Translations under genes and position numbers: made by a program
Part shown: positions 1,821-34,947 of the stretch, one piece after another
Numbering within the stretch: position 1 is the stretch's first letter
Layout: every line of letters begins with the position of its first letter
Notes under the pieces: generated by a model
The model's input: the letters and a program-made list of their open reading frames with translations, nothing else
Told to the model about the DNA's origin: nothing
Databases searched by the model: none
NCBI GenBank assembly: GCA_021741765.1
Contig: JAIOXH010000001.1
Span: forward strand, 1-53,391
From: Aurantimicrobium sp.
GTDB lineage: Bacteria > Actinomycetota > Actinomycetes > Actinomycetales > Microbacteriaceae
Direction of reading: 5' to 3'
Length of the DNA: 53,391 nucleotides

Positions 1821-2573
1821 CTACTGCGCGGTGTAACCGCCGTCGACGAGGTAGTACGCGCCGGTGAGAAAACTGGCGCGGTCCGATAGCAGGAAGCAGA
1901 CCAGCGCCGAGACCTCTTCGGGCTCACCCAAGCGACCCATGGGGTGGCTGGCGGCCAGAACGGGCAGGGCCTCATCAGGCAGGTTGTCGAGCAGGGGCGT
2001 CTTGATGAAGGCGGGCCCCACGGCGTTGATGCGGACGCCCTCCTTGGCGTACTCGAGTGCGCTGTTCTTGGTCAGACCCACCACACCGTGCTTGGCTGCC
2101 ACATAACCCGTGGGCACGCCCAGGGCGCCGACGGAACCGAGGATCGATGACATGTTCACGATCGCACCGCCGCCCGTCTTGAGCATCGCGGGGATCTGGT
2201 GGCGCAGGCCGTAGGCCACACCGCTCAGGTTCACCGAAATCATGTGGTCCCACTGCGCAAGATCCATGCCGCCCATGCGGTCGGCCTGATCGCCGATGCC
2301 GGCGTTGTTGACGGCGAGGGTGAGCTTGCCGAATTCCTTAACGGCTGCGTTTACCGCTGCTTCGTGGTCGGCGACAACCGTGGTGTTGTGCTTCAGTGCG
2401 ATGGCCTTACCGCCGGCGGCAACGATCTCATCGGCCACGGCGGTTGCCGTAACGAGGTTCATGTCGGTGACAACCACGGCGGCTCCGCCGGCGCCGAGCT
2501 CGCGGGCAATGGTGGCTCCCAGGCCCTGTCCGCCTCCGGTGACCAGGGCGACGTGTCCGTCAAATGCGTTCAT
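1821..2573 (-). CDS. Classical short-chain dehydrogenase/reductase (SDR), last gene of the minus-strand operon
   Basis: Carries the TGGGQGLG cofactor motif, NNAG, and the catalytic Y-x-x-x-K (YVAAKHG). 250 aa. Confidence 0.9.
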   Translation of the reverse strand: MNAFDGHVALVTGGGQGLGATIARELGAGGAAVVVTDMNLVTATAVADEIVAAGGKAIALKHNTTVVADHEAAVNAAVKEFGKLTLAVNNAGIGDQADRMGGMDLAQWDHMISVNLSGVAYGLRHQIPAMLKTGGGAIVNMSSILGSVGALGVPTGYVAAKHGVVGLTKNSALEYAKEGVRINAVGPAFIKTPLLDNLPDEALPVLAASHPMGRLGEPEEVSALVCFLLSDRASFLTGAYYLVDGGYTAQ

Positions 2574-2618
2574 GAGTGATTCCTTATCGTTGCGGGAGAT
2601 TGTTTTACGGCAGTGTTG

Positions 2619-3497
2619 CTAAACCTTCGCGGCGTCAGCCTGCTTGAGCAGGTCAATCAGTCCGAACATATTCGAGACCACGAGTTCGGGCTTTATCTCG
2701 GGCGCACACGTTGCGGCATCCTCTGCACTGCTGGTTCCGGTGGTGACCAGCCCGGCAACGGCACCACCCTCGCGCGCCATCTTCGATTCGAGCATGATGT
2801 CGTCGCCAATCACGAGGATGTTGGCAGCGGGATGCCCTAAGTGCTCGGAGATGATGTCCATCGAGTGCTGAGACGGCTTGCCGAGAACCTCACGCTTCTG
2901 CCCAGAGACATATTCGAGTCCGGAGGCGATGAATCCGGAGACGCCCACATTGAGGCGGTGCTGCGACGCAAAGAACGGGACGTCGCTCGCGCAGTAGAGT
3001 TCGGCACCGGCAAGCAGCGCTTCGGCGGCAATCTGAAGCTTGGCACGACCAAAGTCGACGTCCCAGCCCACCATGACGGCCTTCGTGTCGTGTGGCTCGC
3101 CGGCAATGGCTTTATCGAGGTCAACGACGTTCACGTCGCGTTTGATGAAGTCGTCCACGATGCCGGATCCTCCGAACACCATCACCTGCTCGGTCGGAAA
3201 TTTGCGCTTGAGCACGGTGGCTGCGACAACCGCGGGGGTGAAGACCTCGTCGTCGCTCACCTCGATTCCCATCGAGCGCAGGTGGGCGGCAACATCGCGA
3301 GGTGGCTGAGCCGTGCCGTTCGTGAACACACACACGCTTCGACCGCTCTCGCGCACATACTTCAGTGACTCGACGGCGCCCTCGAGCACGCGGCCGTCTT
3401 GGCCGGCCGGTCCGTCGGAAATCACGAGGCAGCCGTCGATGTCGAACATCACGCCCTTCACGTTGGCGAGGCGTTCGATGAGTGCGGCGTCAGCCAT
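2619..3497 (-). CDS. HAD-superfamily subfamily IIA (NagD-like) phosphatase
   Basis: Motifs FDIDGCL (DxDG nucleophile), FTNG and VIGDD. I chose the start at the internal ATG (CAT at 3495-3497), 2 nt after the upstream stop at 3500. The longer ORF-track version (to 3659) would overlap the carboxyltransferase gene. Confidence 0.85.
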   Translation of the reverse strand: MADAALIERLANVKGVMFDIDGCLVISDGPAGQDGRVLEGAVESLKYVRESGRSVCVFTNGTAQPPRDVAAHLRSMGIEVSDDEVFTPAVVAATVLKRKFPTEQVMVFGGSGIVDDFIKRDVNVVDLDKAIAGEPHDTKAVMVGWDVDFGRAKLQIAAEALLAGAELYCASDVPFFASQHRLNVGVSGFIASGLEYVSGQKREVLGKPSQHSMDIISEHLGHPAANILVIGDDIMLESKMAREGGAVAGLVTTGTSSAEDAATCAPEIKPELVVSNMFGLIDLLKQADAAKV

Positions 3498-3499
3498 GG

Positions 3500-5128
3500 T
3501 TATTTTCCTTCCGAGGCGCGACGGAGCGAGACGCTTTCGCCGGCGAAGTTGACCGAAACCGAACGCCACTTGGGCAGTTCGTTTACGGAGTTGATGAACT
3601 CTGAGATATTCGTGGCGGTGCCCGCAGCTCCGGCAGCCTTCGTTGCTTTGCCCGCCCACTTCGGGGCCGGGCCGGCGGCAAACATGGTGTCGACCTGGTC
3701 CTGGGGGAGCACCAGGCGCAGCATGAGCTCTTCTTCGTCGAGTTTGCGGCCAAATTTCTCGGCGTACTCGGTGTGGAGTTCCTTGAGCGACTTCTCGTCG
3801 ACGGGCACCTCGAGTTCGGCTGTGCGCGGCATGTCGGCCACACGCTGCAGAATGTCGGGGTTGATCGGCCCCTCGGGCGTGCCGAAGTGACCGAGCACGA
3901 ACCGCAGCACCTCATCGGGGATTCGCGAGTAGCGCTCCTGACCGCTCTTGAGCGCGAGCACGTTCATCAGGGCTTGGCTACCCACAAACTGGCTGAACGG
4001 CGTGACCATAATGGGGTATCCCAGGTCTGCGCGCACGCGCGAGGCTTCGGCCATCACCGCGGGCAGCTCATCGATCATGCCAATTTCGGTCAGTTGGCGC
4101 TTGAGCGTGCCAATCATGCCACCGGGAACCTGGTGCACGTGCGTGCTCAGGTCATATTCAGTGGGCTGGCCCGCCTTCAGGCCCTGTGCCTTGGCAAACG
4201 ACCACAGCATCTCGGCTGCCTTGGCGGCCGCATCCCGATCCACATCGACCGCGATGCCCATGGCGTCGAGGTTGCCGAGCAACTTCTCCAGGCTCGGTTG
4301 TGCGGTTCCGTTCGACAGCGGGCCGAGGCCGGTGTGCAGCACGTCGATGCCCAGCTGTGCCGCCGTCAGGTACAACTGCGAGGCGGCACCTGTCGTGCAG
4401 TGACTGTGCAGTTCGAGAATCTTGTTGCCCGTAATCTCGCGCATGGGCGGCACGAGGTCGCGAACGCGCTCGTCGGTGAGAAGACCGCCCGGATCCTTGA
4501 GGTAGATAATGTCGATATTGGGGTCGGCAGCATAAGCGCGGGTGTTCGCGAGATACCGCTCGTCGGTGTGAACGGGGCTCTCGGTGAACACCACACCGGC
4601 CACCACCTGCTCGATGCCCTCTTCCTTCGCCCAGCGGGCCACCTTGGTGGTGGCCTCCACATCGTTCATGGGCTCGGCGATCTGCAGGCGGCGCAGTCCG
4701 TGCCGCGCGAGCAGTCGCAGCGACATACGGAACACGGGCTCGGATGCCTTCTCCCACGACATGAAGCGCATTCCGGTCGTGATCGCTGCGAGGGGAGTGT
4801 TGGGCGTGACCGCGCGCATGCGCGACAGCCGCTCCCACGGGTTCTCCTGGTGAAACTTCACCCCCATCGAGAGGTGGGTGGACGACGTGAAGTCAATGGC
4901 CTGAAGGTTCATGGCTTCGAGCAGGGGGCCCACGGCTTCAACCATGCCCGTGGTGACGCCGAGAGCGGCCCACAGGCTTTGGTTACCGTCGCGCACACTG
5001 GTGTCGACAATGCGGATGGGCCCGCGCGTGCGCTGGGCACCTCCGGCCGCAAGGTGCGGGGCAACGCGGCCCGCATCACTTACTTCGGTGCCGGCCTCTG
5101 TTGTGGGGGCCTTCTTCGCTGGCGTCAT
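3500..5128 (-). CDS. Carboxyltransferase subunit of the pyruvate carboxylase / oxaloacetate decarboxylase-alpha / transcarboxylase-5S type, with no fused biotinyl domain
   Basis: Aligns by eye with OadA/PycB: DTSVRDGNQS, IYLKDPGG, LELHSHCTTG, HQVPGGMIGTLKRQL, DLGYPIMVTPFSQFVGSQALMNV. There is no AMKM/EIMK motif at the C-terminus. I chose ATG 5128, which overlaps the upstream TGA as ATGA (5125-5128). The alternative is ATG 5170. Confidence 0.85.
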   Translation of the reverse strand: MTPAKKAPTTEAGTEVSDAGRVAPHLAAGGAQRTRGPIRIVDTSVRDGNQSLWAALGVTTGMVEAVGPLLEAMNLQAIDFTSSTHLSMGVKFHQENPWERLSRMRAVTPNTPLAAITTGMRFMSWEKASEPVFRMSLRLLARHGLRRLQIAEPMNDVEATTKVARWAKEEGIEQVVAGVVFTESPVHTDERYLANTRAYAADPNIDIIYLKDPGGLLTDERVRDLVPPMREITGNKILELHSHCTTGAASQLYLTAAQLGIDVLHTGLGPLSNGTAQPSLEKLLGNLDAMGIAVDVDRDAAAKAAEMLWSFAKAQGLKAGQPTEYDLSTHVHQVPGGMIGTLKRQLTEIGMIDELPAVMAEASRVRADLGYPIMVTPFSQFVGSQALMNVLALKSGQERYSRIPDEVLRFVLGHFGTPEGPINPDILQRVADMPRTAELEVPVDEKSLKELHTEYAEKFGRKLDEEELMLRLVLPQDQVDTMFAAGPAPKWAGKATKAAGAAGTATNISEFINSVNELPKWRSVSVNFAGESVSLRRASEGK

Positions 5129-6489
5129 GTCAGGCTTTCCTTTCGGGCTTCCCACACCGGACCGAACCACGAGGTGGGGATGCCGCCGGCGATGAAGTCG
5201 GGGTGTGCCAGCACATAAGCGTGCATCGGCAAGGTGGTCTTGAGCCCGTCGATCGTGACGTTGCGCACGGCGGCCGTGGCTGCGGCAACAGCGGCATCAC
5301 GATTGTGTGCGCGCACAATGAGCTTGGCCATCAGGCTGTCGTAGAACGGGGGAAAGCGATAGCCCTCCTCGATCTGCGTGTCGATACGGATTCCGGGTCC
5401 CTTGGGCCAGACCAAACGCGTGATGTCGCCCGAGTTCGGCTGGAAGTCGGCGTTGGGATCCTCGGCGTTGATGCGCATTTCGATAACGGCCGCCGGAGGC
5501 ACCGGCCCCACGTCAGGAAGTTCGGGGTCGAGGCCGAGCGCGAGCCTCAGCTGGGCGGCCACGAGGTCGACGCCAAAGGCCTCTTCGGTAACGGGGTGCT
5601 CTACCTGGATGCGCGCGTTCACCTCGAGAAAGATGACGTCTTCTGATTCGGTGTCTACCAAGAACTCCACGGTGCCGGCGCCGCGATAGCGCAGTACCTT
5701 CACGAGTGCGCGCGACGAGTCGTGCAGGAGCTGGCGACGCTTCTCGCTGAGTCCGGGAGCGGGGCACTCCTCGATGAGTTTCTGGTGGCGGCGCTGCACC
5801 GAGCAGTCGCGGTCGCCAAAGATCCAGGCGTTGCCTTCGCCGTCGCCAAAAACCTGTACCTCAACGTGCCGAGCACGACCGTAGTAGCGCTCAAGGTAGA
5901 GCGCGCCGTTGCCAAACGCGGCTACTGCTTCGGCGGCGGCCTGTGGTGCGAGTTCGACGAGTTCTTCGGGGTTCGTGACCAATCGAATGCCGCGGCCACC
6001 GCCACCGTGAATCGCTTTGATGAGGAGCGGGTAGCCAATCTGCTCGCCCAAGGCGACGACGTTGGTGGGGTCGTCAATCTCCACGCCGGCACCAACGGGT
6101 ACGCCGGCATCGATGGCCACCTGGCGGGCACTGCCCTTGTCACCCACGGCCCGAAGCGTTTCTGGGCGCGGTCCCACCCAGGCGATGCCCTCTTCTTCGA
6201 GCAGTTCGCACAGGGCGGGTTGCTCGCTCAGGAACCCGTAGCCGGGGTGAACGGCAGCGGCGCCGGCCATGACGGCCGCTTGGGCTACCTGCTCGGGCTT
6301 GAGGTACGACTGGTTGGCGGGGGAGGCGCCAATCACAATCACACGATCCGCGGCACGTGCCGCCGGTGAATCCTTGTCGGCCACGCTTGCGGCCAAGACG
6401 GGGGATGCGCCAATGCGCCGCGCAGCCGCGATGATGCGCATGGCAATCTCGCCGCGGTTGGCGACGAGGATGACGGGGACGTCAGACAC
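5125..6489 (-). CDS. Biotin carboxylase (AccC-like ATP-grasp subunit)
   Basis: ILVANRGEIAMRII at the N-terminus, GGGGRGIR, and the EMRINAEDP-type C-terminal domain. 454 aa. GTG start at 6489, 2 nt after the BCCP stop. Confidence 0.93.
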   Translation of the reverse strand: MSDVPVILVANRGEIAMRIIAAARRIGASPVLAASVADKDSPAARAADRVIVIGASPANQSYLKPEQVAQAAVMAGAAAVHPGYGFLSEQPALCELLEEEGIAWVGPRPETLRAVGDKGSARQVAIDAGVPVGAGVEIDDPTNVVALGEQIGYPLLIKAIHGGGGRGIRLVTNPEELVELAPQAAAEAVAAFGNGALYLERYYGRARHVEVQVFGDGEGNAWIFGDRDCSVQRRHQKLIEECPAPGLSEKRRQLLHDSSRALVKVLRYRGAGTVEFLVDTESEDVIFLEVNARIQVEHPVTEEAFGVDLVAAQLRLALGLDPELPDVGPVPPAAVIEMRINAEDPNADFQPNSGDITRLVWPKGPGIRIDTQIEEGYRFPPFYDSLMAKLIVRAHNRDAAVAAATAAVRNVTIDGLKTTLPMHAYVLAHPDFIAGGIPTSWFGPVWEARKESLT

Positions 6490-6491
6490 GG

Positions 6492-6992
6492 TTACGCGCT
6501 GGTGTCGATGGTCGCGAGTGGCTGGCCAAACTCGACCGCGTCAGCATCCGTCACGAGGAAGTCGGTGATCACGCCCGCCTTGCCGGCAACAATCGGGTTC
6601 ATGAGCTTCATGATCTCGATGATGCCGATCGTGGTGTCGGCCTCAACGCGCTGTCCGGGCTCCACAAACGGTGCGGCTCCCGGCGACGGGCGACGATAGA
6701 ACACGCCAATCATGGGTGCGTCAATCGTGTCACCCAACGCGGCCGCCGGAGCGGCAGTCGGTATGGCTGCCGCCGCTGGTTGAGTAGCCGACGCAGTCGG
6801 CGTATCGAAACCAGTCTCGATACGGGGCTGCGCCCCTACTCGACCAGCGGTTGTCGGCGCATCAAACACCGCATCATTCTTTGACAGGCGAATCGACACA
6901 TCGCCCACCTGCACACTCGCTGACTCGTAGTCGCTCTCGTTGAGCTGTGAGATGAGGTCGAGAACGTCTTGCCAGCTGGGCTGTTCGCCCAC
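6492..6992 (-). CDS. Biotin carboxyl carrier protein (AccB-like)
   Basis: A Pro/Ala-rich linker precedes a C-terminal biotinyl domain with IIEIMKLMN (canonical E-[AI]-M-K-[ML]). GTG start at 6992, 2 nt after the upstream stop at 6995. Confidence 0.9.
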   Translation of the reverse strand: MGEQPSWQDVLDLISQLNESDYESASVQVGDVSIRLSKNDAVFDAPTTAGRVGAQPRIETGFDTPTASATQPAAAAIPTAAPAAALGDTIDAPMIGVFYRRPSPGAAPFVEPGQRVEADTTIGIIEIMKLMNPIVAGKAGVITDFLVTDADAVEFGQPLATIDTSA

Positions 6993-6994
6993 GC

Positions 6995-8824
6995 TTACGC
7001 CTCTTCCAGAATCGTGACCTTGCCGGTGTCGCCGTCGACGCGAATGAGCATTCCCGTCTTGATGGTGGTCGTGCCGAATCCGGTACCCACCACGGCCGGC
7101 AGGCCGTATTCACGCGACACGATGGCCGCGTGACACATGATGCCACCAATGTCGGAGACGGCTGCCTTGATGCGGCTGAAAACCGGTGTCCACGAGGTGT
7201 TGGTCACGGGAGCCACGAGAATTTCGCCGTCCTGTACCTGGTCGAGCTCATCGGGTGTCAGCACGATTCGCGCACGCCCCTCGGCAATTCCGGGTGCGGC
7301 GGCAAAGCCACCGAGCTCGGTCTTGCTTCCCACGCCCTCGGCCTGGTCGAGCCAACGCTCCACGGTCTCCGGGGTGATGCCCCAGAGCATGATCGTAAGC
7401 GGCTCAGAGACGTCCTCGGGCACGGGGCCGAGTGCCGGCGGGGGAGTCCACTTGGCCAGGGCCTTGTAGATCGCCTTGCGCTTGGCTACCACGGCGGGCC
7501 AGTAGGCAGGACCCTGCGGCTCGGTGCCGTGGCTCCACGCAGCCTGGAGGTCGATGATGGCCTCCACTGCTTCGGCGCGACGCAGCATGAAGATGTCGTC
7601 TTCCGACTCCCAGAAGCCCCACTTCGCCAACAGCGCACCGAACTCGCGCACCTTGTTCCAGAACTCGGTCATGAACCAGTGTTCGATGTAGAAGTTGTGG
7701 TTCTCCACGTAGGGGAACACCGTGCGCGACAGGCCCAGGGCACCGTCGAACTCGGCCAGCACATCGCCCTCGAGGAGGTCGCGGTAGATGTTCGTAATCT
7801 CGTCACGCTCGGCCTGGCGCTTGTCGAGCTGGCGCTCGAGCGATTCGCCGCGACGCACCATCTTGATGTAGTCGCCGATGCCCTGGATGGGCATGCTCAG
7901 GTCGTCGACCCACGAGCGGTGGTGGTGATACATGCCGGAGCCGTTGGAGAAATAGAACCAGGGGTTCTTGGTTTCTTCGAGATCGGCCAGCCACTTCTTT
8001 CCGGCATCGGTGCCCGACAGGTTGGCCTGCAACGAGGTCTCGTCCTTCGAGGCAAGCACGGCATCGCCCACACCGAGTTCTTCGGCGAGCTTGGCCAGGC
8101 GACGCAGCTCGTCGTCCGGACGGAACAGAATCACATCGATGCCCGAAACCATGCGCGAGATGGTCTGGTCGGTGATGTCGGGGAAGTTCGCCTTGCACAG
8201 CAGCAGGAACTGCAGATAGGCGGCGTAACCGAGGTTGAGGAACTCCGAGTGAAGAGTCCAGATGGCGTCACCCTGGGCAATGAGGTCGAGATAGTTGGCC
8301 AGCACCGTGTTGGCTTGCGTGTTGCCGTGGGTCTCGGTGACGTACTCGAGCGTTTCGAATTCGGTCATCTCGGGAATCGCAATGCCCTTGACGGCAGAGA
8401 TGCGACCCTTGACGCGCTCAACCCAGTCCTCGTAGAGGCTGTCCCAGTTCTGGAAGTAGTGGCCGGCCCGCACGCCGAACTCGGCGGCGCGACGCTCGAT
8501 CTCTTCGGGGGCGGGAGCGGGGAGAGCGCTCATGTAGGTGTAGCCGTTGACCACGCGAACGTCGAGGCCCTTTGCCGGCGGCATGGCGAAAACGCGCGTG
8601 TTGGTCACACCGGTACCCATGAAGGCACAGTCAATGGTGATCTGGTCGAACGGGTACGACACCTCGGGGAAGTGCAGTGAGTTGCGGAACCACGTCTTTT
8701 TGCCGTCAACAGCCTGGCGTCCCTCCTGGAACAGGTTGTGGTACGCGTAAAGGTCTTGCCAGCCCTCGGCGCCCTCGGGCGTTTCAATGGCGTAGGGATC
8801 CGGGAATGTGCGCTTGCCGGTCAA
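6995..8824 (-). CDS. PEP-utiliser family protein. It has a C-terminal phosphohistidine swivelling domain; I do not recognise the N-terminal ~500 aa. First gene of the operon.
   Basis: The C-terminus reads GRARIV...GEILVAPVTNTSWTPVFSRIKAAVSDIGGIMCHAAIVSREYGLPAVVGTG, the mobile-domain signature G-G-x-x-x-H-A-A-I-V-[AS]-R-E. I found no GGK(G/N)AxL ATP-grasp motif. I prefer the TTG start at 8824, which sits 6 nt downstream of AAGGAG. The ORF-track ATG at 8908 is the alternative. Confidence 0.75.
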   Translation of the reverse strand: MTGKRTFPDPYAIETPEGAEGWQDLYAYHNLFQEGRQAVDGKKTWFRNSLHFPEVSYPFDQITIDCAFMGTGVTNTRVFAMPPAKGLDVRVVNGYTYMSALPAPAPEEIERRAAEFGVRAGHYFQNWDSLYEDWVERVKGRISAVKGIAIPEMTEFETLEYVTETHGNTQANTVLANYLDLIAQGDAIWTLHSEFLNLGYAAYLQFLLLCKANFPDITDQTISRMVSGIDVILFRPDDELRRLAKLAEELGVGDAVLASKDETSLQANLSGTDAGKKWLADLEETKNPWFYFSNGSGMYHHHRSWVDDLSMPIQGIGDYIKMVRRGESLERQLDKRQAERDEITNIYRDLLEGDVLAEFDGALGLSRTVFPYVENHNFYIEHWFMTEFWNKVREFGALLAKWGFWESEDDIFMLRRAEAVEAIIDLQAAWSHGTEPQGPAYWPAVVAKRKAIYKALAKWTPPPALGPVPEDVSEPLTIMLWGITPETVERWLDQAEGVGSKTELGGFAAAPGIAEGRARIVLTPDELDQVQDGEILVAPVTNTSWTPVFSRIKAAVSDIGGIMCHAAIVSREYGLPAVVGTGFGTTTIKTGMLIRVDGDTGKVTILEEA

Positions 8825-8934
8825 GGTGTGCTCCTTTGCAACATGTGGACAGGATTGCTTTCGCGTCGGCACGGGGTGCAAACGAGAAGTCGTGACACAA
8901 GTAGACACTCTTTTGCAGGAAAGCGCAACATATT

Positions 8935-8949
8935 TTTCATTGAGTGAAA
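8935..8949. promoter_or_regulatory. Palindromic box 1 (TTTCATTGAGTGAAA), a candidate IclR operator in the divergent control region
   Basis: TTTCA-N5-TGAAA inverted repeat in an AT-rich intergenic region, 14/15 identical to box 2. Confidence 0.4.
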
Positions 8950-9035
8950 CCGCAAGCTATTTTTCGGTTGACCTCAAAAACAGCGAAAATATTGAATTTG
9001 CAGAGTATTTCTCAAAAATGTCAAGGAAATGACCT

Positions 9036-9050
9036 TTTCATTTAGTGAAA
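9036..9050. promoter_or_regulatory. Palindromic box 2 (TTTCATTTAGTGAAA), a candidate IclR operator
   Basis: Same inverted repeat, 101 bp from box 1. It lies just upstream of my preferred IclR start (9071). Confidence 0.4.
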
Positions 9051-9070
9051 AAGTCTCTACATTGGAGAAC

Positions 9071-9868
9071 ATGACAGATGTCATTCTCGCGACCGACGCG
9101 CCACCAGCGGCCACGCGGTCCGTCACGGCTCGCGCTTTGTCCATTCTGGGCGTGTTCAGCATGGAGCGTCCCAGCATGACGCTGTCTGAGATTTCGCGCG
9201 CCACGGGGCTGCCGGTCGCAACCGTCTATCGCCTCGCGGGCGAGCTCGAAGAGGGCCGTTTTCTCGACCGCGACGAGGACGGCCGTTACAGTTTGGGTCT
9301 CTATCTCTGGGAGATGGGCATGCTCACTCCGGTGCACGGTCGCCTGCGTGAGATTGCCATGCCGTTCCTCCTCAACCTGCAGTACACATGTCGCGAGACG
9401 GTGCAGCTGGCCGTGATTGATGGCGTGGATGCCATCTACATCGAGAAACTCACCATGGTGGAGTCGGCGCCGGTGCAGTCACGCATTGGCGCGCGCATCC
9501 CTCTGCACGCCACAGGCGTCGGCAAGGCACTCTTGGCCTTCAGTGGTCCCGCGTTTGTCGACACTGTTTTGGGCATGCCGTTGACGCGCTTTACCGATGA
9601 CACCACGACGAGTCGCCACACGCTGGCCAAACAACTCGCGCACGTTATCGAAGACGGCTTTGCGCACTCGCGTCAGGAGTACCTCATGGGGTCGACGTCG
9701 ATCGCCTCCCCGGTGCTCGTGAACGGCGTCGTTAAGGCGTCCATCGGAATCGTGAACTACGAAGACACCAATCTCAGCGAGTGGGTGCCCGCACTGCTTC
9801 ACGCGTCCGAGGCTCTGGGCACGCGCCTCGAGGAGCTGCGCTGGGGAACAAAAGAGGAGAAGAAGTGA
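9071..9868 (+). CDS. IclR-family transcriptional regulator
   Basis: N-terminal wHTH RALSILGVFS...MTLSEISRATGLPVATVYRLAGELEE, plus a C-terminal IclR effector domain (HATGVGKALLAF). I chose ATG 9071 (GGAG just upstream) over ATG 9029 because box 2 lies inside the longer version. Confidence 0.85.
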   Translation: MTDVILATDAPPAATRSVTARALSILGVFSMERPSMTLSEISRATGLPVATVYRLAGELEEGRFLDRDEDGRYSLGLYLWEMGMLTPVHGRLREIAMPFLLNLQYTCRETVQLAVIDGVDAIYIEKLTMVESAPVQSRIGARIPLHATGVGKALLAFSGPAFVDTVLGMPLTRFTDDTTTSRHTLAKQLAHVIEDGFAHSRQEYLMGSTSIASPVLVNGVVKASIGIVNYEDTNLSEWVPALLHASEALGTRLEELRWGTKEEKK

Positions 9869-11844
9869 CCATCGAATCAGGTACCTTGCTACGACCGGCG
9901 ATTGATCGCTCTCACTGGTCAGATTCCCGCATGGGGCGCTTTCTTGAGCGCATCGCCGCGCGCGAGGGCATCACCTTTGCCACGTTCGAAGACGCCTGGC
10001 AGTGGTGCATCGACAACCTCGAAACATTCTGGGCCGACGTCATCGACGAGTTCGACATCATTCTGCATTCGCCATATGAGCGCATCCTGGCCTCGCGCCA
10101 GATGCCCGGAGCCGAGTGGCTTCCCGGGGCAACCCTGAACTATGCCGAAAATGCCGTTTCGGCACTGCGCGCGCGTGGCGACAATCGCTCACTTATTGCG
10201 CGCTCGCAGACCAACGGCGCTCGCGAGTGGTCGGCCAATCGTCTCGTCGAAGAAGTGGGACGCGTTCAAGCGGGACTGCGTCGCGCCGGTGTAGGCGTGG
10301 GCGACCGCGTGGTGGCCTACCTTCCCAACCTTCCGGAGACGGTGGCCGTGTATCTGGCCACGGCGTCGCTCGGGGCCATCTTCTGTTCGATTCCTCCTGA
10401 GATGGGCCCGACGAGCATGATCGATCGAGCGGGTCAGCTCGACGCCAAGGTGATCATCGCCGTCGACGGCTACGTGTGGGGCACCAAGCGGGTGGGTCGC
10501 ATGGATGAGCTCGCGCGCATCCGTGAGGCCATCCCGAGTGCCCAGTACGTCGTGCTGCCGTATCTCGATACCGACGTCACGATTCCTTCGGGCATGGCGT
10601 CATACGCCGACTTCACGGCAGAGCAGAACGAACCCACCTTTGAGGCTGTGCCCTTCAACCATCCGCTGGTAATCCTGTTTTCGTCGGGCACGACGGGCAA
10701 GCCCAAGGCCATTGTGCACTCCCACGGCGGCATGCTCTTGGCTCACCTGCGTGACATTGGCCTGCACTTCGACATCAACGAGAAGGATGTCAACTTTTGG
10801 TACTCCACCACCGGCTGGATGGTGTGGACCCTGAGCGTGTCCAACCTGTTGGTGGGCGCGGCCATGGTGCTGATGGACGGCGACCCAAACTTTCCGTCGC
10901 TCGACGGCGAGTGGTCGCAGTGGGCGGTCGCTGCCGAGACGGGCGCCACCTACATGGCCACCAGTTCGGCGTATCTGGCCGCGTGTGCCCATGCCGGCAT
11001 GACACCGGGTTCGACGTGGGACCTCTCGAAGCTTCGCGAGATTCAGTGCTCGGGCTCACCGCTGGCTGCCGACGTGGCTGCCTGGGTGTACGCCGAGGTG
11101 AGCCCCACGCTCACGCTCACCCCCGCATCCGGTGGTACCGATATCTGTTCGGGGTTCCTCATGGGCTCGCCCCTCACAGCGGTTTATGCCGGCGAGATGT
11201 CGTGCCGCCCCCTCGGCGTAGCCACCGATTCGTGGGACCCGAGCGGCCACTCGATTGCCGGTGAACCCGGCGAACTGGTCTGCACCCAGCCCCTGCCCAA
11301 CATGCCGGTGTACTTCTGGGGCGACGACAACTTTGAGCGCTACCTGGCCAGTTACTTTGACACCTACCCCGGAATCTGGCGCCACGGCGACTGGTTGATT
11401 CGTACGCCTCGCGATACCTGGATGATTACGGGTCGGTCGGATGCCACGCTCAACCGCGGTGGCGTGCGCTTGGGCACCGCCGAGTTCTACGCCGTCCTCG
11501 ATCCGTTGCCCGGCGTGAACGACTCCATGGTGATGCACTTCGAAGACCCGGATGGCGGTATGGGAACGCTCGTCATGCTCGTTGTGGCGGGAGCAGAGAC
11601 CGACCACGCCGAGCTCGAAAAGGCGATTCGCACCGCCATTCGCACCGAGCTGTCACCTCGCCACGTGCCCGACGCCATCGTGTTCACCGAGAGCGTGCCG
11701 CGCACGGCGACGGGCAAGCGCCTCGAGATTCCGCTCAAGCGCGTGGTGCAGGGCATGACCGGCGAAAACGTGATGGATCGCAGCGTGCTCGTCAACCCTC
11801 AGCATGTCGACGACATCGTGGCGGCGGTGCGCGCCGTAATCTAG
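9865..11844 (+). CDS. Acetoacetyl-CoA synthetase (acetoacetate-CoA ligase)
   Basis: Strong resemblance to AACS: FWADVIDEF..., LNYAEN, ILFSSGTTGKPKAIVHSHGG, GRSDATLNRGGVRLGTAEFY, SPRHVPDAIVFTESVPRTATGKRLE. GTG start at 9865 after GAGGAG, overlapping the IclR stop (GTGA). Confidence 0.88.
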   Translation: MTIESGTLLRPAIDRSHWSDSRMGRFLERIAAREGITFATFEDAWQWCIDNLETFWADVIDEFDIILHSPYERILASRQMPGAEWLPGATLNYAENAVSALRARGDNRSLIARSQTNGAREWSANRLVEEVGRVQAGLRRAGVGVGDRVVAYLPNLPETVAVYLATASLGAIFCSIPPEMGPTSMIDRAGQLDAKVIIAVDGYVWGTKRVGRMDELARIREAIPSAQYVVLPYLDTDVTIPSGMASYADFTAEQNEPTFEAVPFNHPLVILFSSGTTGKPKAIVHSHGGMLLAHLRDIGLHFDINEKDVNFWYSTTGWMVWTLSVSNLLVGAAMVLMDGDPNFPSLDGEWSQWAVAAETGATYMATSSAYLAACAHAGMTPGSTWDLSKLREIQCSGSPLAADVAAWVYAEVSPTLTLTPASGGTDICSGFLMGSPLTAVYAGEMSCRPLGVATDSWDPSGHSIAGEPGELVCTQPLPNMPVYFWGDDNFERYLASYFDTYPGIWRHGDWLIRTPRDTWMITGRSDATLNRGGVRLGTAEFYAVLDPLPGVNDSMVMHFEDPDGGMGTLVMLVVAGAETDHAELEKAIRTAIRTELSPRHVPDAIVFTESVPRTATGKRLEIPLKRVVQGMTGENVMDRSVLVNPQHVDDIVAAVRAVI

Positions 11845-17058: not shown

Positions 17059-17691
17059 CTAGGAATCCGCTCCGAGGGTGGCGGCATACTCAGCGGTGAC
17101 GGCGTCCGAAATTTTTGCGGCTTCTTCGCTGGAGAGTCCCGGCTCGGCAATCAGCATGGCGCGGCGGTAGTACTCAAGTTCGCGAATCGACTCGATGATG
17201 TCGGCCAGCGCCCGGTGGTTGCCGTCTTTTGAGGGAGCGTTGAAGTACACCCGGGGGAACCAGCGGCGGGCCAGCTCTTTGAGCGACGAAACATCGATGT
17301 TTCTATAGTGCAAGGCCGCATCGAAGCGCGGCATGTATCGGGCCAAAAACATGCGGTCAGTGCCAATCGTGTTTCCGGCCAGCGGTGCTCGGTGACCTTC
17401 GGGAACGTGGGCGGCGAGGTACTCGAGCACCAGGGTCTCGGCTTCCGCGAGCGCCAGGCCGTCGTCGAGTTCGGTGATGAGTCCCGACTTGGTGTGCATC
17501 TCACGAACAAAGTCGCCCATGTTGTTCAGCGCCGTGGGGCTCGGCTTGATTACCAGAGATAAACCCTCGTGGCGGGGAACAAGGTTCGAGTCGGTGATGA
17601 TGACGGCAATCTCTACGATTTCGTCGATGGCTACGTCGAGCCCTGTCATTTCGCAGTCGACCCAGACGAGATAGTCGTTTCCATTAGCCAT
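17059..17691 (-). CDS. orn: Oligoribonuclease
   Basis: DEDDh exonuclease motifs: LVWVDCEMTGLD, and H...ALADI near the C-terminus. 210 aa. The orn-tRNA-His arrangement is typical of actinobacteria. Confidence 0.93.
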   Translation of the reverse strand: MANGNDYLVWVDCEMTGLDVAIDEIVEIAVIITDSNLVPRHEGLSLVIKPSPTALNNMGDFVREMHTKSGLITELDDGLALAEAETLVLEYLAAHVPEGHRAPLAGNTIGTDRMFLARYMPRFDAALHYRNIDVSSLKELARRWFPRVYFNAPSKDGNHRALADIIESIRELEYYRRAMLIAEPGLSSEEAAKISDAVTAEYAATLGADS

Positions 17692-17767
17692 GTGGCTCAG
17701 TTTAGTTTGGCGTCGCGACAGTATTCTTGAGGTGAATCATTCGGCCAACTCATCAAGGGGTGCTTTC

Positions 17768-19297
17768 GTGCGCGTAACCGGACTCGGACATGCCGGGCTC
17801 TTCATTGAGACCCTGGGCGGATCCGTGCTCTGTGACCCTTGGGTGCACCCGGCTTTTTTCGGCTCGTGGTTTCCCTTCCCCGACAACCGGGGCCTCGACT
17901 GGGAGAAGTTCGGCAAGGCCGATTACCTCTATGTGTCGCACCGCCACCGCGACCACTTCGATCCCCAGCTGCTCCAGCGCTACGTGCCCACCGACATTAC
18001 GGTGCTCTTGCCCGAGTACCCCACCGATGATCTCGAACGCGATCTTCGCGCACTCGGTTACACCAACATCTTTTACACCAAGGCCGGCGAGGTGATTGAG
18101 CGCGACGGCTTGCGCATCATGGTCACCCCCATGCGGGCGCCCAGTGATGGGCCCGTGGGTGATTCATCTCTGTCGCTTGACGACGGCACGGCCGTCATAC
18201 TCGATCAGAACGACGCTCATCCGCTCGACCTCGATGCCCTGCTGGGCTTCGGTAAGGTCGACGCGTACTTCACGCAGTTCTCGGGCGCCATCTGGTGGCC
18301 CATGGCCTATGACCTCACGCTCGAGGAGAAGCAGCACTTCGCTCAGCTCAAGCGTGACGCACAGACCAAACGCGCGCAGTTCTACATCACCAAGATTGAT
18401 GCCCCGCACGTTTTTCCCATGGCGGGCCCACCCATGTTCCTCGACGACGAACTGTTCGGGTTCAACGGTTCCGGTGTCAACGGAGAGTCGATCTTTACCG
18501 ACCAGGCGGAGTTCCTCGACGTGCTCACGGAGTCCCACGCGCAGGCTGCCGGCCACATCTTTATGCCCGGCACGGTTGTCGAGATAGAACACGGCAATGT
18601 GACCGTGACCAACGAGCTGTTTACCGATGACGAGATTCGCCACATGTTCGCCAACAAGTGGGAGTACTTCGAGAACCAGCGCTCTACGCGGCAGGCCGAG
18701 CTCGCGGCCGAGAAGGCCAGTCGGGCTCCCGTGCCCGCAGACCTGTTCGAGCAGGTCAAGGCGTGGTGGGAGCCTCTGATGAAGCGCGCTCCCACGCTGT
18801 GCGACGGCATCGGCGCCCTGGTACGTTTCACCATCGGCGACGACGACCTCGTGGCCGATTTCCCCAAGGGGGAGGTACGCCGATTCAACGATGAGGCCTG
18901 CCGATACTGGTTCACCATTCCGGCTGACCTGGTGGCCACCAACCTGCGCGACCACGAGATTGACTGGTCTAACTCCATTTTTCTCTCGGTGCGGTTTCAA
19001 GCCGGTCGCATTGGCAAGTTCAACGAGTATCTCTACACGTTCATGAAGTGCCTCTCACCGGAGCGCATCGATTACGTGGAGAACTGGTACTCCGAGCAGT
19101 CGGATACGGGCGAGGATATCCGCATCGACGACTGGCTCGTGCAACGGCGTTGCCCGCACCTGCGCGCCGACCTGAGCAAGGCGGGCACGGTTGAGAACGG
19201 CGTGCTTACCTGCAGCCTTCACGACTGGAAGTTCGACCTCGCCACGGGCCGTTGCCTCACGAGCCATGGGCACGAGATTCGCGCGAGCAAGATCTAG
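17768..19297 (+). CDS. MBL-fold metallo-hydrolase fused to a C-terminal Rieske [2Fe-2S] domain
   Basis: N-terminus VTGLGHAGLFIE...YLYVSHRHRDHFD (HxHxDH-like). C-terminus CPHLRADL...LTCSLHDWKFD (Rieske CxH...CxxH). GTG start at 17768 after AAGGGG. Confidence 0.8.
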   Translation: MRVTGLGHAGLFIETLGGSVLCDPWVHPAFFGSWFPFPDNRGLDWEKFGKADYLYVSHRHRDHFDPQLLQRYVPTDITVLLPEYPTDDLERDLRALGYTNIFYTKAGEVIERDGLRIMVTPMRAPSDGPVGDSSLSLDDGTAVILDQNDAHPLDLDALLGFGKVDAYFTQFSGAIWWPMAYDLTLEEKQHFAQLKRDAQTKRAQFYITKIDAPHVFPMAGPPMFLDDELFGFNGSGVNGESIFTDQAEFLDVLTESHAQAAGHIFMPGTVVEIEHGNVTVTNELFTDDEIRHMFANKWEYFENQRSTRQAELAAEKASRAPVPADLFEQVKAWWEPLMKRAPTLCDGIGALVRFTIGDDDLVADFPKGEVRRFNDEACRYWFTIPADLVATNLRDHEIDWSNSIFLSVRFQAGRIGKFNEYLYTFMKCLSPERIDYVENWYSEQSDTGEDIRIDDWLVQRRCPHLRADLSKAGTVENGVLTCSLHDWKFDLATGRCLTSHGHEIRASKI

Positions 19298-23509: not shown

Positions 23510-24412
23510 ATGTCGCCCACACCAGATGCCTACGAAGCTTTCTTAAATCTGCCCACGATTGTTCTGGTGATCATTGTCGCCATCCCAGCAATCGTGATCA
23601 TGTGGCTGGGCATCCTTTTTAGCTTGCGCCGCGGCGCAGACAGCGACTTCACCGATTTTGCCAACTCGGCGCTCGCCATCGTGGGCGGTGCCTTTATTTT
23701 TGTGGGCGCGTTTTCCGTGGTTACCTCGTGGGACACTCAGTCGCGCCTCGAAGCGAGTGTGACGAGTGAATTCACCTCGATTACCTCGCTGGCAGAAGAC
23801 CTCGGGGGTATTCCGCGAGAGTCCTCCCGTGAGACTGCTCTCTCTTTGGTGGACTACGCCACGCTCGTGAGAGACACCGAGATTGGCACGCAGGGAGTCG
23901 TCGCGCCTAACCCCGAGGCGCAAAAGGCTCTGGCGGTCATCGAGGCTAGTGTCACGTCGACTGCCGAGTCGCCCGGACTTACGGAACACCAGGTCGACAA
24001 CCTCTATAACCACATGGAGGCCGTCAAGGATGCCCGCAAGGATCGACTCACCATAGACGTGCCCAATCTTCCCGTGAGCCTGAACGTCATGTTGGGGCTA
24101 GCGGCCGTGCTCATGCTTCTCGGAATTGGTCTCTACCCCGCATCGCGCATTCCGTGGCTCAAATACTTCTACGGTGGCGCCACCACCATTGTGACGATTG
24201 CCATGATTTCTGCGGTGCTCACTCTTCAGTCTCCGGTCAACGTCGCCGCCCAGTCTTCTCAGGTCATCGACATGTTCATTACGTCGGTGACCGAGGGTGG
24301 GGCGAATCTTGGTCTGAACGATGGGCAACAGGGAACACTTCCCGCTCCGGAGCCCGGCCAGCAGCCCGGACAAGCACCGGGAGACGGGCAACCGCCCGCA
24401 CCGGCACCCTAG
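23510..24412 (+). CDS. DUF4239-like membrane protein with a Pro/Gly/Gln-rich tail (paralogue A)
   Basis: N-terminal TM, then GGAFIFVGAFSVVTSWD, a helical region, and two C-terminal TM segments. The tail is PAPEPGQQPGQAPGDGQPPAPAP. Clear similarity to the ORF at 27623-28513. Confidence 0.72.
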   Translation: MSPTPDAYEAFLNLPTIVLVIIVAIPAIVIMWLGILFSLRRGADSDFTDFANSALAIVGGAFIFVGAFSVVTSWDTQSRLEASVTSEFTSITSLAEDLGGIPRESSRETALSLVDYATLVRDTEIGTQGVVAPNPEAQKALAVIEASVTSTAESPGLTEHQVDNLYNHMEAVKDARKDRLTIDVPNLPVSLNVMLGLAAVLMLLGIGLYPASRIPWLKYFYGGATTIVTIAMISAVLTLQSPVNVAAQSSQVIDMFITSVTEGGANLGLNDGQQGTLPAPEPGQQPGQAPGDGQPPAPAP

Positions 24413-24579
24413 GGCGCGTCGCGCGTCGTCGCCGAAACACTCCGGCCCCGGCTCCGCACGCCTCGGAGGTACCTGGGCCGTCTCAAATTGACAACTGCCC
24501 AAGAGCTCAATGCGTCAACGTCAGCACCCGGGAATCTGTAGTCTTTATGGGGGCACAGACGACGCGAAGGAGCGATCAG

Positions 24580-26121
24580 ATGACACGAATTGGTGTGGTT
24601 CGGGAGCAAGACGGCGAGACACGTGTAGCCGCAACTCCCGACACTGTGGCCAAGATTGTCGCTCTCGGTTACGAGGTCAACGTGGAGAAGGGTGCCGGCG
24701 CGAAGTCGGCCTCACCCGACGCTCAGTATGAGAAGGCCGGCGCGAGCATTGTGACCACCGCCAAGGCGTGGTCTGCCGACGTCGTCATGAAAGTCAACGC
24801 TCCGACCGACGAAGAAATAGGCAAACTCGCAGCCGGCACAACCCTGATCAGCTTGCTCAGCCCCGCCCTGCGCCCCGAACTTCTTGAGGCGCTCGCCAAG
24901 CGCGACGTCACCGCTCTCGCTCTCGACGCCGTACCGCGCATTTCGCGAGCCCAGTCGATGGATGTGCTCAGTTCCATGGCCAATCTGGCCGGTTACCGCG
25001 CGGTGATTGAGTCGGCCCACGAGTTTGGCCGTCTGTTCACTGGTCAGGTCACGGCAGCAGGCAAGGTTCCTCCCGCCAAGGTACTCGTGGCCGGTGCGGG
25101 TGTTGCCGGACTTGCGGCCATTGGTGCCGCCTCGAGTCTCGGCGCCATCGTGCGTGCCACCGATCCGCGCCCCGAGGTTGCCGACCAGGTGCGGTCGATT
25201 GGTGGCGAGTATGTTGCCGTTGAGGTCGACGAAAAGATGGAGTCGTCCGACGGCTACGCCAAAGCGACGAGTGAGGCCTACGACCGACGTGCCGCCGAGG
25301 TGTACTCAGAACAGGCGCTCGACGTTGACATCATCATCACCACGGCTCTCATTCCGGGACGTCCGGCACCGAAACTTCTCACGGCGGCCGACGTGGCGAG
25401 CATGCGCCCGGGCAGCGTCATCGTAGATATGGCCGCGGGCATGGGTGGCAACGTTGCCGGCTCAGTTGCCGGCAAGCGCATTGTCACCGACAACGGCGTG
25501 GTGATTCTCGGTTACACCGACCTGGCCGGCCGCCTTCCTCAGCAGGCCTCGCAGCTGTTTGGCACCAACATGCTCAACCTGCTCAAGTTGCTCACCCCCG
25601 CCAAAGACGGCCAGCTCGTGATTGATTTCGAGGACGTCGTGCAGCGAGCCGTTACCGTGGTGCAGGAGGGCAGCATTACGTGGCCGCCCCCGCCGGTTCA
25701 GGTTTCGGCCGCCCCCGCCGGGGCCGCAGAAATAGCCAAGCCTGAGCCAAAGCCCAAGAAGACTATGTCGCGCGGCAGCAAGGGCGTGCTCATCGGCATC
25801 GGTCTGCTCGGTCTTCTGGCTGTTTGCACGTTTGCGCCCGCTCCGTTGCCCCAGCACTTCCTCGTACTCATGCTCTCGGTTGTCGTGGGCTTCTACGTCA
25901 TCGGCAAGGTGCACCACGCACTTCACACGCCGCTGATGAGCGTGACCAATGCCATCTCGGGCATCGTGGTGGTGGGTGCCATCGCACAGCTCGCATCCTC
26001 GAACCTTGTCGTGCAGATACTGGCCGCCGTCGGAGTTCTTTTCGCGTCAATCAACGTCTTTGGTGGCTTCGCCGTTACCGGACGAATGCTCAAGATGTTT
26101 AGCAAGGGAGGCCCGCGATGA
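24580..26121 (+). CDS. pntA: NAD(P) transhydrogenase subunit alpha (full-length, with C-terminal TM helices)
   Basis: MTRIGVVRE...[11 protein letters not shown], Rossmann motif [16 protein letters not shown]-terminal membrane helices. ATG 24580 follows GAAGGAG. The ORF-track 5' extension has no support. Confidence 0.93.
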
Positions 26122-34909: not shown

Positions 34910-34947
34910 CGCGCACATCCTCTAGAGAAGCCCATTCTTAAATGTAG

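Follow-up and report, generated by a model that had tools for sequence, protein, structure and literature searches.

A probable Hpe/Acv-type operon for aryl methyl ketones that lacks the gene for the ATP-binding kinase subunit in Aurantimicrobium

The closest described relatives of the operon reported here, which lies at positions 1821 to 8824 of a 53,391-nucleotide stretch of Aurantimicrobium sp. (contig JAIOXH010000001.1, positions 1 to 53,391 of the forward strand; hereafter the window), are two homologous pathways for hydroxylated aryl methyl ketones. The first is the hydroxyphenylethanone (Hpe) pathway of Rhodococcus rhodochrous GD02, encoded by hpeHICBADEF (Dexter et al. 2022, PMC9618137). 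Its kinase, HpeHI, is a homologue of CreHI and of phenylphosphate synthase, and both of its two subunits are needed to phosphorylate the phenolic hydroxyl of acetovanillone and 4-hydroxyacetophenone (PMC9618137). HpeCBA is a three-subunit biotin enzyme that carboxylates phosphorylated ketones only, preferring 4-phospho-acetophenone about tenfold over phospho-acetovanillone (PMC9618137). Phosphate is taken off the carboxylated product by HpeD, a NagD-like HAD enzyme, and an AcsA2-like ligase (HpeE) and a hydrolase (HpeF) complete the conversion to vanillate or 4-hydroxybenzoate; the HpeEF-type step is not universal, being absent from Sphingobium SYK-6 (PMC9618137).

The second pathway is encoded by acvABCDEF of Sphingobium SYK-6, in which AcvAB, AcvCDE and AcvF act likewise (Higuchi et al. 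2022, 10.1101/2022.04.28.489975). In kinases of this type the PPDK_N subunit moves phosphate from MgATP to a conserved His of the larger subunit (10.1101/2022.04.28.489975). AcvAB is replaced in Novosphingobium by MarK, a non-homologous kinase, and among representative genomes 25 carry hpeHI or acvAB beside the carboxylase genes and 27 carry marK (Hall et al. 2025, PMC12624787). Actinomadura macra NBRC 14102 has been named as carrying a complete syntenous hpe cluster (PMC9618137), and in Aromatoleum aromaticum EbN1 the carboxylase genes for XccABC are clustered with hpeHI homologues (PMC9618137; 10.1101/2022.04.28.489975). Labels for the GD02 carboxylase subunits differ between the two papers of 2022, in that Dexter et al. 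use hpeB for the carboxyltransferase and hpeA for the biotin carboxylase while Higuchi et al. use apkA and apkB, respectively (PMC9618137; 10.1101/2022.04.28.489975). The gene order of a canonical Rhodococcus locus (L001), with carrier protein, biotin carboxylase and carboxyltransferase in succession, agrees with the labels of Higuchi et al.

The window operon consists of six intact minus-strand genes, as established from the open reading frame (ORF) listing and a check of the gene junctions. From 8824 down to 1821 they encode the swivel protein H (the kinase alpha subunit), the biotin carboxyl carrier protein (BCCP), a biotin carboxylase (BC), a carboxyltransferase (CT), a HAD phosphatase and a short-chain dehydrogenase/reductase (SDR). 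As in Hpe and Acv, three separate carboxylase subunits are followed directly by a NagD-type HAD-IIA phosphatase, and the alpha kinase subunit has the conserved phospho-acceptor His in its PF00391 domain. An Hpe/Acv-type function is very likely on these grounds of homology and gene order, and we are fairly confident that the locus is a catabolic operon for 4-hydroxyaryl methyl ketones in which the kinase alpha subunit is presumably charged in trans. The kinase beta subunit (PF01326 PPDK_N), which also defines Hpe and Acv, was not found in the window, and for this reason the locus is classed as a variant, neither a canonical member nor a categorically new system. What is new here is the variant without the ATP-binding beta subunit; the pathway itself has already been described and characterised biochemically.

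Several comparisons carry this assignment. The canonical cluster of Rhodococcus sp. IEGM 1330 comprises vanAB, two IclR genes, H, I (PPDK_N), BCCP, BC, CT, HAD, a ligase and an Amidohydro_2 gene. Its counterparts to the window proteins are 67% (H), 47% (BCCP), 74% (BC), 70% (CT), 54% (HAD), 63% (IclR) and 37% (ligase) identical by tblastn, and the cluster holds a 69%-identical relative of the window swivel protein. H of A. macra NBRC 14102 (locus L029) is 68-69% identical to window H. In a neighbour-joining tree of 77 H proteins, window H groups next to the canonical Hpe clade, at a large distance from the Cre-like one, and the window clade is sister to Alpinimonas. The IclR regulator encoded next to the operon is 63% identical to the IclR adjoining hpeH in Rhodococcus and is orthologous to the regulator beside canonical hpe clusters. 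Catalytic motifs are intact in the translations, namely GGIMCHAAIVSRE in H, RDGNQS, LKDPGG and HSHCT in CT, EIMKLM in BCCP, DIDG in HAD and YxxxK in the SDR. The Hpe/Acv aryl ketone pathway has as its signature a swivel-His protein that occurs together with a HAD phosphatase and a biotin carboxylase in three parts, although such proteins are currently annotated as 'PEP-utilizing enzyme', 'pyruvate,water dikinase' or 'hypothetical'.

Loss of hpeI and retention of the alpha subunit

No match to HpeI was obtained by tblastn in the 53-kb window with PPDK_N queries from Rhodococcus, Alpinimonas and Aurantimicrobium (the last of cre type), and Pfam scans of 38 ORFs of the window found neither a PPDK_N nor a UPF0261 (MarK-type) kinase. 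The gap between the H and BCCP genes, where hpeI sits in Alpinimonas, is only 2 nt. Window H is 97-98% identical to proteins of lake metagenome-assembled genomes (MAGs) and 86-89% identical to those of Aurantimicrobium MAGs. Among the loci that encode an H of at least 55% identity and extend past H, most also carry carboxylase genes, and hpeI follows H except in the window clade (L002-L011). All members of this clade that are long enough have the arrangement H-BCCP-BC-CT-HAD-SDR with a divergent IclR-ligase pair, between gatB and dinB. In Alpinimonas psychrophila the gatB...dinB synteny, the SDR and the ligase are the same, but hpeI is still present between H and BCCP, encoding a protein 71% identical to that of Rhodococcus. 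Since this sister lineage retains hpeI in identical synteny, the comparison indicates that the gene was cleanly deleted in the ancestor of the window clade. An orphan HpeI orthologue in the window lineage was looked for and not found: the best matches to Alpinimonas HpeI fall from 97% straight to 73%, and the abundant 73% match (P0122) sits in a canonical H-I-BCCP context. An earlier note on this DNA, made from the sequence alone, had proposed checking whether the swivel protein and the carboxylase genes are neighbours in other genomes; in most such loci they do co-occur. What the note had missed is the absence of the ATP-binding beta subunit, the one unusual feature of the locus.

The H gene (6995..8824, minus strand) is the first of the operon, has a TTG start and an AAGGAG element 7 nt upstream, and encodes 609 residues. 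An alternative 637-residue ORF starting at 8908 was rejected as an over-extension, because the DNA between 8825 and 8908 has indels, is missing in some relatives and is not conserved as coding sequence, and because in an alignment of the upstream DNA the TTG/ATG start codon at 8824 and the GGAG align in all seven relatives. Pfam detects PF00391 only (residues 531-601), the NCBIfam placement is PRK08296, and matches to PDB sequences are limited to residues 489-606. The phospho-acceptor His565, within the motif given above, is invariant. A complete phosphoenolpyruvate (PEP) synthase or PPDK, an identity that the earlier note had named as a possibility, was rejected for H. Such an enzyme unites a PPDK_N ATP-grasp, a swivel domain and a TIM barrel that binds PEP or pyruvate (PF02896) in a single chain, of which only the swivel domain matches in H, and the PEP synthase models score ~100 bits against cut-offs of 598-976.

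An AlphaFold2 model of H (pLDDT 87.7, pTM 0.90) aligns in its full length with Listeria rifampin phosphotransferase (RPH; 5fbu, 5fbt), over ~610 columns with E ~1e-17 and TM ~0.6. The aligned part of RPH comprises its substrate-binding domain and its C-terminal His domain, and the N-terminal ATP-grasp of RPH has no counterpart in the model. H is the alpha subunit of a two-subunit dikinase, with a helical substrate-binding domain and a phospho-His domain and no ATP-binding domain. Because the model matches RPH except for the N-terminal ATP-grasp, H and I together make up a split dikinase of the rifampin phosphotransferase type, and H alone has no nucleotide site.

Selection on H was estimated from the ratio of nonsynonymous to synonymous substitution rates (dN/dS) against two close relatives, at dS ~0.5. 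The ratio is 0.025-0.03 for H and 0.01-0.02 for BC, compared with 0.025 for gatB; CT, HAD, SDR, IclR and the ligase are under weaker constraint. Across the deeper splits of the clade H is the operon's most conserved protein, at 86-89% identity. These values bear on whether the operon could be a decaying remnant, its kinase dead since the loss of hpeI and its other genes on their way out. The absence of hpeI and hpeF would fit such decay, as would the loss of H as well in a related strain, and the lineage is genome-streamlined. We nevertheless regard decay as hardly credible, given that all eight genes of the locus (operon, iclR and ligase) are intact, that dN/dS lies between 0.01 and 0.15 for every gene and is lowest for H and BC, and that the beta-less arrangement has been kept across species whose dS is saturated. 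A clade in which the ATP-binding subunit has been deleted while the other subunit is conserved like a housekeeping gene amounts to a natural experiment on whether dikinase alpha subunits are able to function with a shared beta subunit or with none.

The beta-less clade sits on a long branch, and 31 substitutions are fixed in its H proteins at residues that are otherwise conserved in beta-containing relatives; 8 of the 31 fall within a stretch of 60 residues (494-553) that surrounds the beginning of the swivel domain. When the 31 sites were compared with the Cre-like alpha subunit in a test for convergence, 7 showed the derived state and 8 the ancestral one; a clear excess of the derived state would have hinted that H adapted to a CreI-like partner. 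The long branch and the fixed substitutions that follow the loss of hpeI could be read as adaptation of H to act without an ATP-grasp partner, as an aryl-phosphate:aryl-alcohol transphosphorylase. The phosphoryl group would pass from the carboxylated product, or from another aryl phosphate, to the swivel His and on to a fresh ketone, and an external donor would be needed in catalytic amounts only. Very strong purifying selection on H after the deletion is in keeping with such a shuttle, as is the possession of substrate-binding and phospho-His domains by a protein that has no nucleotide site. Protein 1 of Thauera phenylphosphate synthase alone catalyses exchange between phenol and phenylphosphate. 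If true, this mode of operation would be new for a swivel-His dikinase and would save two phosphoanhydride bonds per substrate molecule. We consider it improbable. An intact HAD phosphatase has been retained, implying hydrolysis of the phosphate, and a source of primer phosphate would still be required. The mechanism is without precedent in the work on Hpe and Acv, where both subunits are required, and the CreI-like subunits that are common in the lineage (see below) offer a simpler answer.

Layout, gene products and proposed pathway

Downstream of H, the free, HpeC/AcvC-like BCCP (6492..6992; PF00364, TIGR00531), which has the EIMKLM biotinylation motif, begins 2 nt after the H gene, and BC (5125..6489; PF00289, PF02786, PF02785) begins 2 nt after BCCP. 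The gene for CT, which has the PycB/OadA fold (3500..5128; PF00682, PF02436), overlaps the BC stop codon at ATGA. It is followed after 2 nt by the HpeD/AcvF-like HAD-IIA phosphatase of NagD type (2619..3497; PF13344, PF13242, TIGR01460; DIDG motif) and, after a 45-nt gap, by the last gene of the operon, that of the SDR (1821..2573; adh_short; YxxxK motif). None of the six minus-strand genes has an internal stop, and a purine-rich stretch resembling a ribosome-binding site lies 5' of each. A divergent control region of 204 nt (8825..9028) separates H from the plus-strand gene of the IclR-family regulator (9029..9868; PF09339, PF01614), whose stop codon is overlapped by the GTG start, at 9865, of the gene for an AcsA-type AMP-forming beta-keto acid CoA ligase (9865..11844, plus strand). 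No AccA/AccD/PccB-type carboxyltransferase is present at the locus, and Pfam finds in the operon proteins none of the Hydantoinase_A/B-type domains of the biotin-independent acetone and acetophenone carboxylases. The descriptive part of the earlier note holds up well against these results: its six minus-strand genes with their 2-nt gaps, 4-nt ATGA overlap and 45-nt gap, its iclR and overlapping ligase gene and its statement that no AccA/AccD/PccB-type enzyme is present were all confirmed, and the domains it predicted (PF00391, PF00364, PF02785/PF02786 and PF00682 with PF02436, in a CT that has no biotinyl domain) were found by Pfam.

The control region, which the earlier note called AT-rich, has a G+C content of 0.56 against ~0.63 in its surroundings. 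A palindrome, TTTCATTGAGTGAAA (also given as TTTCATTNAGTGAAA), lies within it at 8935-8949, and a second copy at 9036-9050 falls just inside the annotated iclR start; these two matches compare with 0.00 expected by chance. The palindrome is also conserved upstream of H in other members of the clade, Alpinimonas, two species of Cryobacterium and Arthrobacter sp. C2, and it lies upstream of BCCP in Aurantimicrobium minutum. It is the obvious candidate for an IclR operator, through which the IclR protein would control both divergent units, and its sharing ties the regulation of the window operon to that of canonical-type clusters.

CT falls below every PycB/OadA NCBIfam cut-off. Its best curated match, to NF006761, scores 272.6 bits against a cut-off of 402 and ends at profile position 431 of 591, and its closest solved structure, the PycB chain 5ks8_C, is matched at only 177 bits; there is no fused biotinyl domain (no PF00364). 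Identification as pyruvate carboxylase subunit B or as the alpha subunit of oxaloacetate decarboxylase was rejected because CT scores below the family cut-offs and has no biotinyl domain. By analogy with the characterised enzymes, CT is presumed to be a phospho-aryl methyl ketone carboxyltransferase. On NF002937 the window ligase reaches 749 bits and the ligase at the HpeE position in the canonical Rhodococcus cluster 840 bits, so that the family name does not fix the substrate. The window ligase is 43-55% identical to the in-cluster ligases of more distant hpe-like clusters. It is presumed to be the functional counterpart of HpeE and of EbN1 AcsA, with a hydroxyphenyl-beta-ketopropionate as its substrate. 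The SDR is kept at the same position within the clade (74-78% identity) and in Alpinimonas (75%), and in distant hpe-like clusters an SDR gene lies directly upstream of H. The window SDR probably interconverts alcohols of the 1-(4-hydroxyphenyl)ethanol type and the ketone, in free or phosphorylated form.

It is proposed that the pathway begins with phosphorylation of the phenolic hydroxyl via the phospho-His of the 609-residue HpeH-like alpha subunit. BCCP, BC and the PycB-fold CT would then carboxylate the aryl phosphate at its acetyl methyl group, with ATP and bicarbonate, and the HAD-IIA phosphatase would strip the phosphate from the carboxylated product. The AcsA-type ligase would form the beta-ketoacyl-CoA, whose cleavage elsewhere would give acetyl-CoA together with a hydroxybenzoate, either free or as the CoA ester, and the SDR would probably connect the corresponding 1-aryl-ethanol with the ketone. 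The substrate is rather likely to be a 4-hydroxyaryl methyl ketone of the 4-hydroxyacetophenone or acetovanillone type, judging from the characterised homologues.

Some observations weigh against this interpretation. The kinase is incomplete as encoded in the window, because there is no PPDK_N or UPF0261 gene in its 53 kb, and a trans-acting beta subunit for the window organism was not seen within that span. Neither HpeF, for which tblastn with the Rhodococcus protein gave no match, nor a thiolase nor a ring-cleavage enzyme is encoded in the window, and the ligase, at only 37% identity to the canonical HpeE-position ligase, passes the cut-offs for 'acetoacetate-CoA ligase'. The published accounts also disagree on whether dephosphorylation takes place before or after carboxylation (PMC9618137; 10.1101/2022.04.28.489975).

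The earlier note had read the locus differently, as a possibly undescribed carboxylase of acetone or another small ketone or 2-oxo compound, in which the swivel-His protein aids the biotin enzyme and acetoacetate is the product. Its general logic is that of Hpe and Acv as characterised: a methyl ketone is carboxylated in a biotin-dependent way in combination with phosphoryl transfer, a phospho-intermediate would be removed by the HAD enzyme, the ligase would take the beta-keto acid product, and the SDR may supply the ketone. Its claim to novelty fails, homologous clusters having been characterised biochemically in 2022 (PMC9618137; 10.1101/2022.04.28.489975) and surveyed in 2025 (PMC12624787). 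Rather than being the carboxylase's partner, the swivel protein is the alpha subunit of a separate two-subunit dikinase, and HpeCBA works alone on pre-phosphorylated substrate. Acetone gives way to a likely 4-hydroxyaryl methyl ketone phosphorylated on its phenolic hydroxyl. In favour of a small ketone, the ligase does pass the NCBIfam acetoacetate-CoA ligase cut-offs, the window holds no aromatic catabolic gene, and some non-canonical form of charging is needed where the ATP-binding subunit is absent. The ligase label was rejected as evidence for acetone, as the canonical HpeE-position ligase scores higher still on the same models. Against a small ketone, clusters characterised on phospho-aryl ketones encode enzymes to which H, BC and CT are 67-74% identical, and H shares with rifampin phosphotransferase its large helical domain for substrate binding. 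The sister genus retains hpeI in the same operon, and the lineage has LigAB and PobA-like genes. A carboxylase of acetone or a similar small compound is, in our view, very improbable.

The remainder of the window holds housekeeping genes, among them gatB, dinB, ABC transporters, pntAB and an ion exchanger. In a 535-residue protein (17690-19297, plus strand), an N-terminal part resembling metallo-beta-lactamases is joined to an Rv3818-like SCP2 domain and a C-terminal Rieske domain, and a 430-residue protein (33626-34918, minus strand) has a GNAT acetyltransferase domain fused to an AAA ATPase domain. The PntA ORF (24154-26121, plus strand) has ~146 residues before its first Pfam domain, reflecting either a start that was probably over-called or an unusual N-terminal extension. 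An alpha-acetolactate decarboxylase gene (PF03306; 22686-23438, plus strand) stands alone amid housekeeping genes, with no operon link seen.

Phenolic metabolism in the lineage and possible sources of phosphate

A CreI-like subunit occurs widely, both in genomes of Aurantimicrobium and Rhodoluna and in metagenomes from lakes. The cre layout of one related contig (L083), according to Pfam, is IclR, P450, I', H', HD, SDR, Fer2, reductase, HD and aldehyde dehydrogenase, where I' and H' denote the cre-type kinase subunits. Judging from this and other Aurantimicrobium-like contigs (L084, L087-L090), cre-type alkylphenol clusters are common in these small freshwater genomes. Cre clusters of the lineage adjoin genes for LigAB (protocatechuate 4,5-dioxygenase), an HpcH/HpaI aldolase or a PobA-like FAD monooxygenase. 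The presence of LigAB and PobA-like genes beside the cre clusters argues that the lineage degrades phenolics and has ring-cleavage capacity for hydroxybenzoates. Placing a lignin-monomer pathway in these abundant, genome-streamlined freshwater Actinobacteria would bear on the turnover of terrestrial phenolics in lakes.

Because the alpha subunit has stayed strictly conserved after the hpeI deletion, we infer, at about even odds, that the orphan H receives its phosphoryl group in trans, from a beta subunit whose gene lies elsewhere. On the simplest reading the best candidate for this role is the CreI-like subunit of the lineage's cre-type alkylphenol cluster. The longest contig given is 295,391 bp in length both for an H protein from a beta-less operon of a relative (P0007, 86% identical to window H) and for a CreI-like protein (P0253), so that the two probably share one contig. 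The window itself does not encode a Cre system for 4-cresol or other alkylphenols, which has the CreHI kinase, the P450 CreJ with its redox partners, an aldehyde dehydrogenase and an HD phosphohydrolase: Pfam finds no P450, HD or Aldedh gene in its 53 kb, and window H is 46-49% identical to the Cre-like clade.

A different relation between the two kinds of cluster is seen in A. minutum MWH-Bo1 (L075, 17039-21803 and 6695-17035), where an IclR gene is divergent from BCCP-BC-CT-HAD and neither H nor I is present. BCCP, BC, CT and HAD are 61%, 82%, 66% and 58% identical to those of the window, respectively, and IclR is 78% identical over 98 residues. By ORF sizes and tblastn, this operon lies directly beside, and convergent to, a cluster that matches the cre layout of L083. 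The arrangement points to a route from 4-ethylphenol in which the ketone is already phosphorylated on arrival. Were the same true of the window organism, an hpe-type kinase would be dispensable: 4-ethylphenol would be phosphorylated by the cre kinase, hydroxylated at the benzylic position by the P450 and oxidised by an SDR to 4-phospho-acetophenone, and H would remain in a secondary capacity, for instance to scavenge free ketone with the help of a borrowed beta subunit. Besides the A. minutum operon, the SDR gene that terminates the window operon and the tenfold preference of HpeCBA for 4-phospho-acetophenone over phospho-acetovanillone speak for such a supply. We think it unlikely for the window organism, as the window has no cre cluster, cre activity on ethylphenol is putative in this lineage, and the standing of H as the operon's most conserved protein across the deeper divergences would go unexplained.

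We therefore keep to an operon for 4-hydroxyaryl methyl ketones with an alpha subunit presumably charged in trans. There is also a small chance that the alpha subunit of this clade has been freed from a dedicated ATP-binding partner altogether, whether through the phosphoryl shuttle described above or through a promiscuous CreI-like beta subunit shared by two substrate-specific alpha subunits.

Comparison with known systems

The Hpe system of R. rhodochrous GD02 has in common with the window locus a swivel-His alpha subunit, a free BCCP, BC, a PycB-fold CT, a NagD-type HAD enzyme, an AcsA-like ligase and an adjacent IclR gene. The order H-(I)-BCCP-BC-CT-HAD is the same, canonical clusters are 47-74% identical, and the putative operator motif recurs in several canonical-type clusters. 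Unlike Hpe, the window has neither hpeI (the PPDK_N beta subunit) nor hpeF (the hydrolase), and its operon ends with an added SDR gene. Its ligase belongs to another AcsA-like lineage (37%) and is encoded divergently with iclR, whereas the Hpe ligase gene lies downstream of hpeD. The window cluster also occupies the core gatB-dinB region of a small freshwater genome, where that of GD02 lies between transposase genes.

The acvABCDEF cluster of SYK-6 follows the same logic, in the order A(H)-B(I)-C-D-E-F, with the later steps encoded elsewhere (VceAB). The marK-acvCDEF cluster of Novosphingobium aromaticivorans illustrates that one kinase module can be swapped for another while the core of carboxylase and phosphatase remains (PMC12624787). 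The acv and marK systems each have a complete kinase, either of two subunits or a monomeric UPF0261 protein; the window, by contrast, has half of a two-subunit kinase.

The anaerobic p-ethylphenol pathway of A. aromaticum EbN1 resembles the window locus in its three-part biotin carboxylase, XccABC, which acts on 4-hydroxyacetophenone. Also part of the EbN1 cluster are an acetoacetyl-CoA-synthetase-like ligase (AcsA) and alcohol dehydrogenases of the SDR type (Hped/ChnA). The EbN1 system, which is likened to the window here by description and not by sequence, differs in being proteobacterial and anaerobic and in keeping both kinase-like genes.

PpsAB of Thauera aromatica, CreHI of Corynebacterium glutamicum and rifampin phosphotransferase are likewise swivel-His dikinases, in which an ATP-grasp charges the His and the phosphoryl group passes to a hydroxyl of the substrate. 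Window H, with the identity to the Cre-like clade given above, is 17-19% identical to RPH. None of these systems is coupled to a biotin carboxylase, and phenylphosphate carboxylase is not homologous to HpeCBA. Finally, the two-subunit pyruvate carboxylase PycAB, the alpha subunit of oxaloacetate decarboxylase and the 5S subunit of transcarboxylase have the CT fold (PF00682, PF02436) and metal-site motifs in common with window CT, but the characterised homologues of the latter use an aryl-phosphate methyl ketone, and not a 2-oxo acid, as their substrate.

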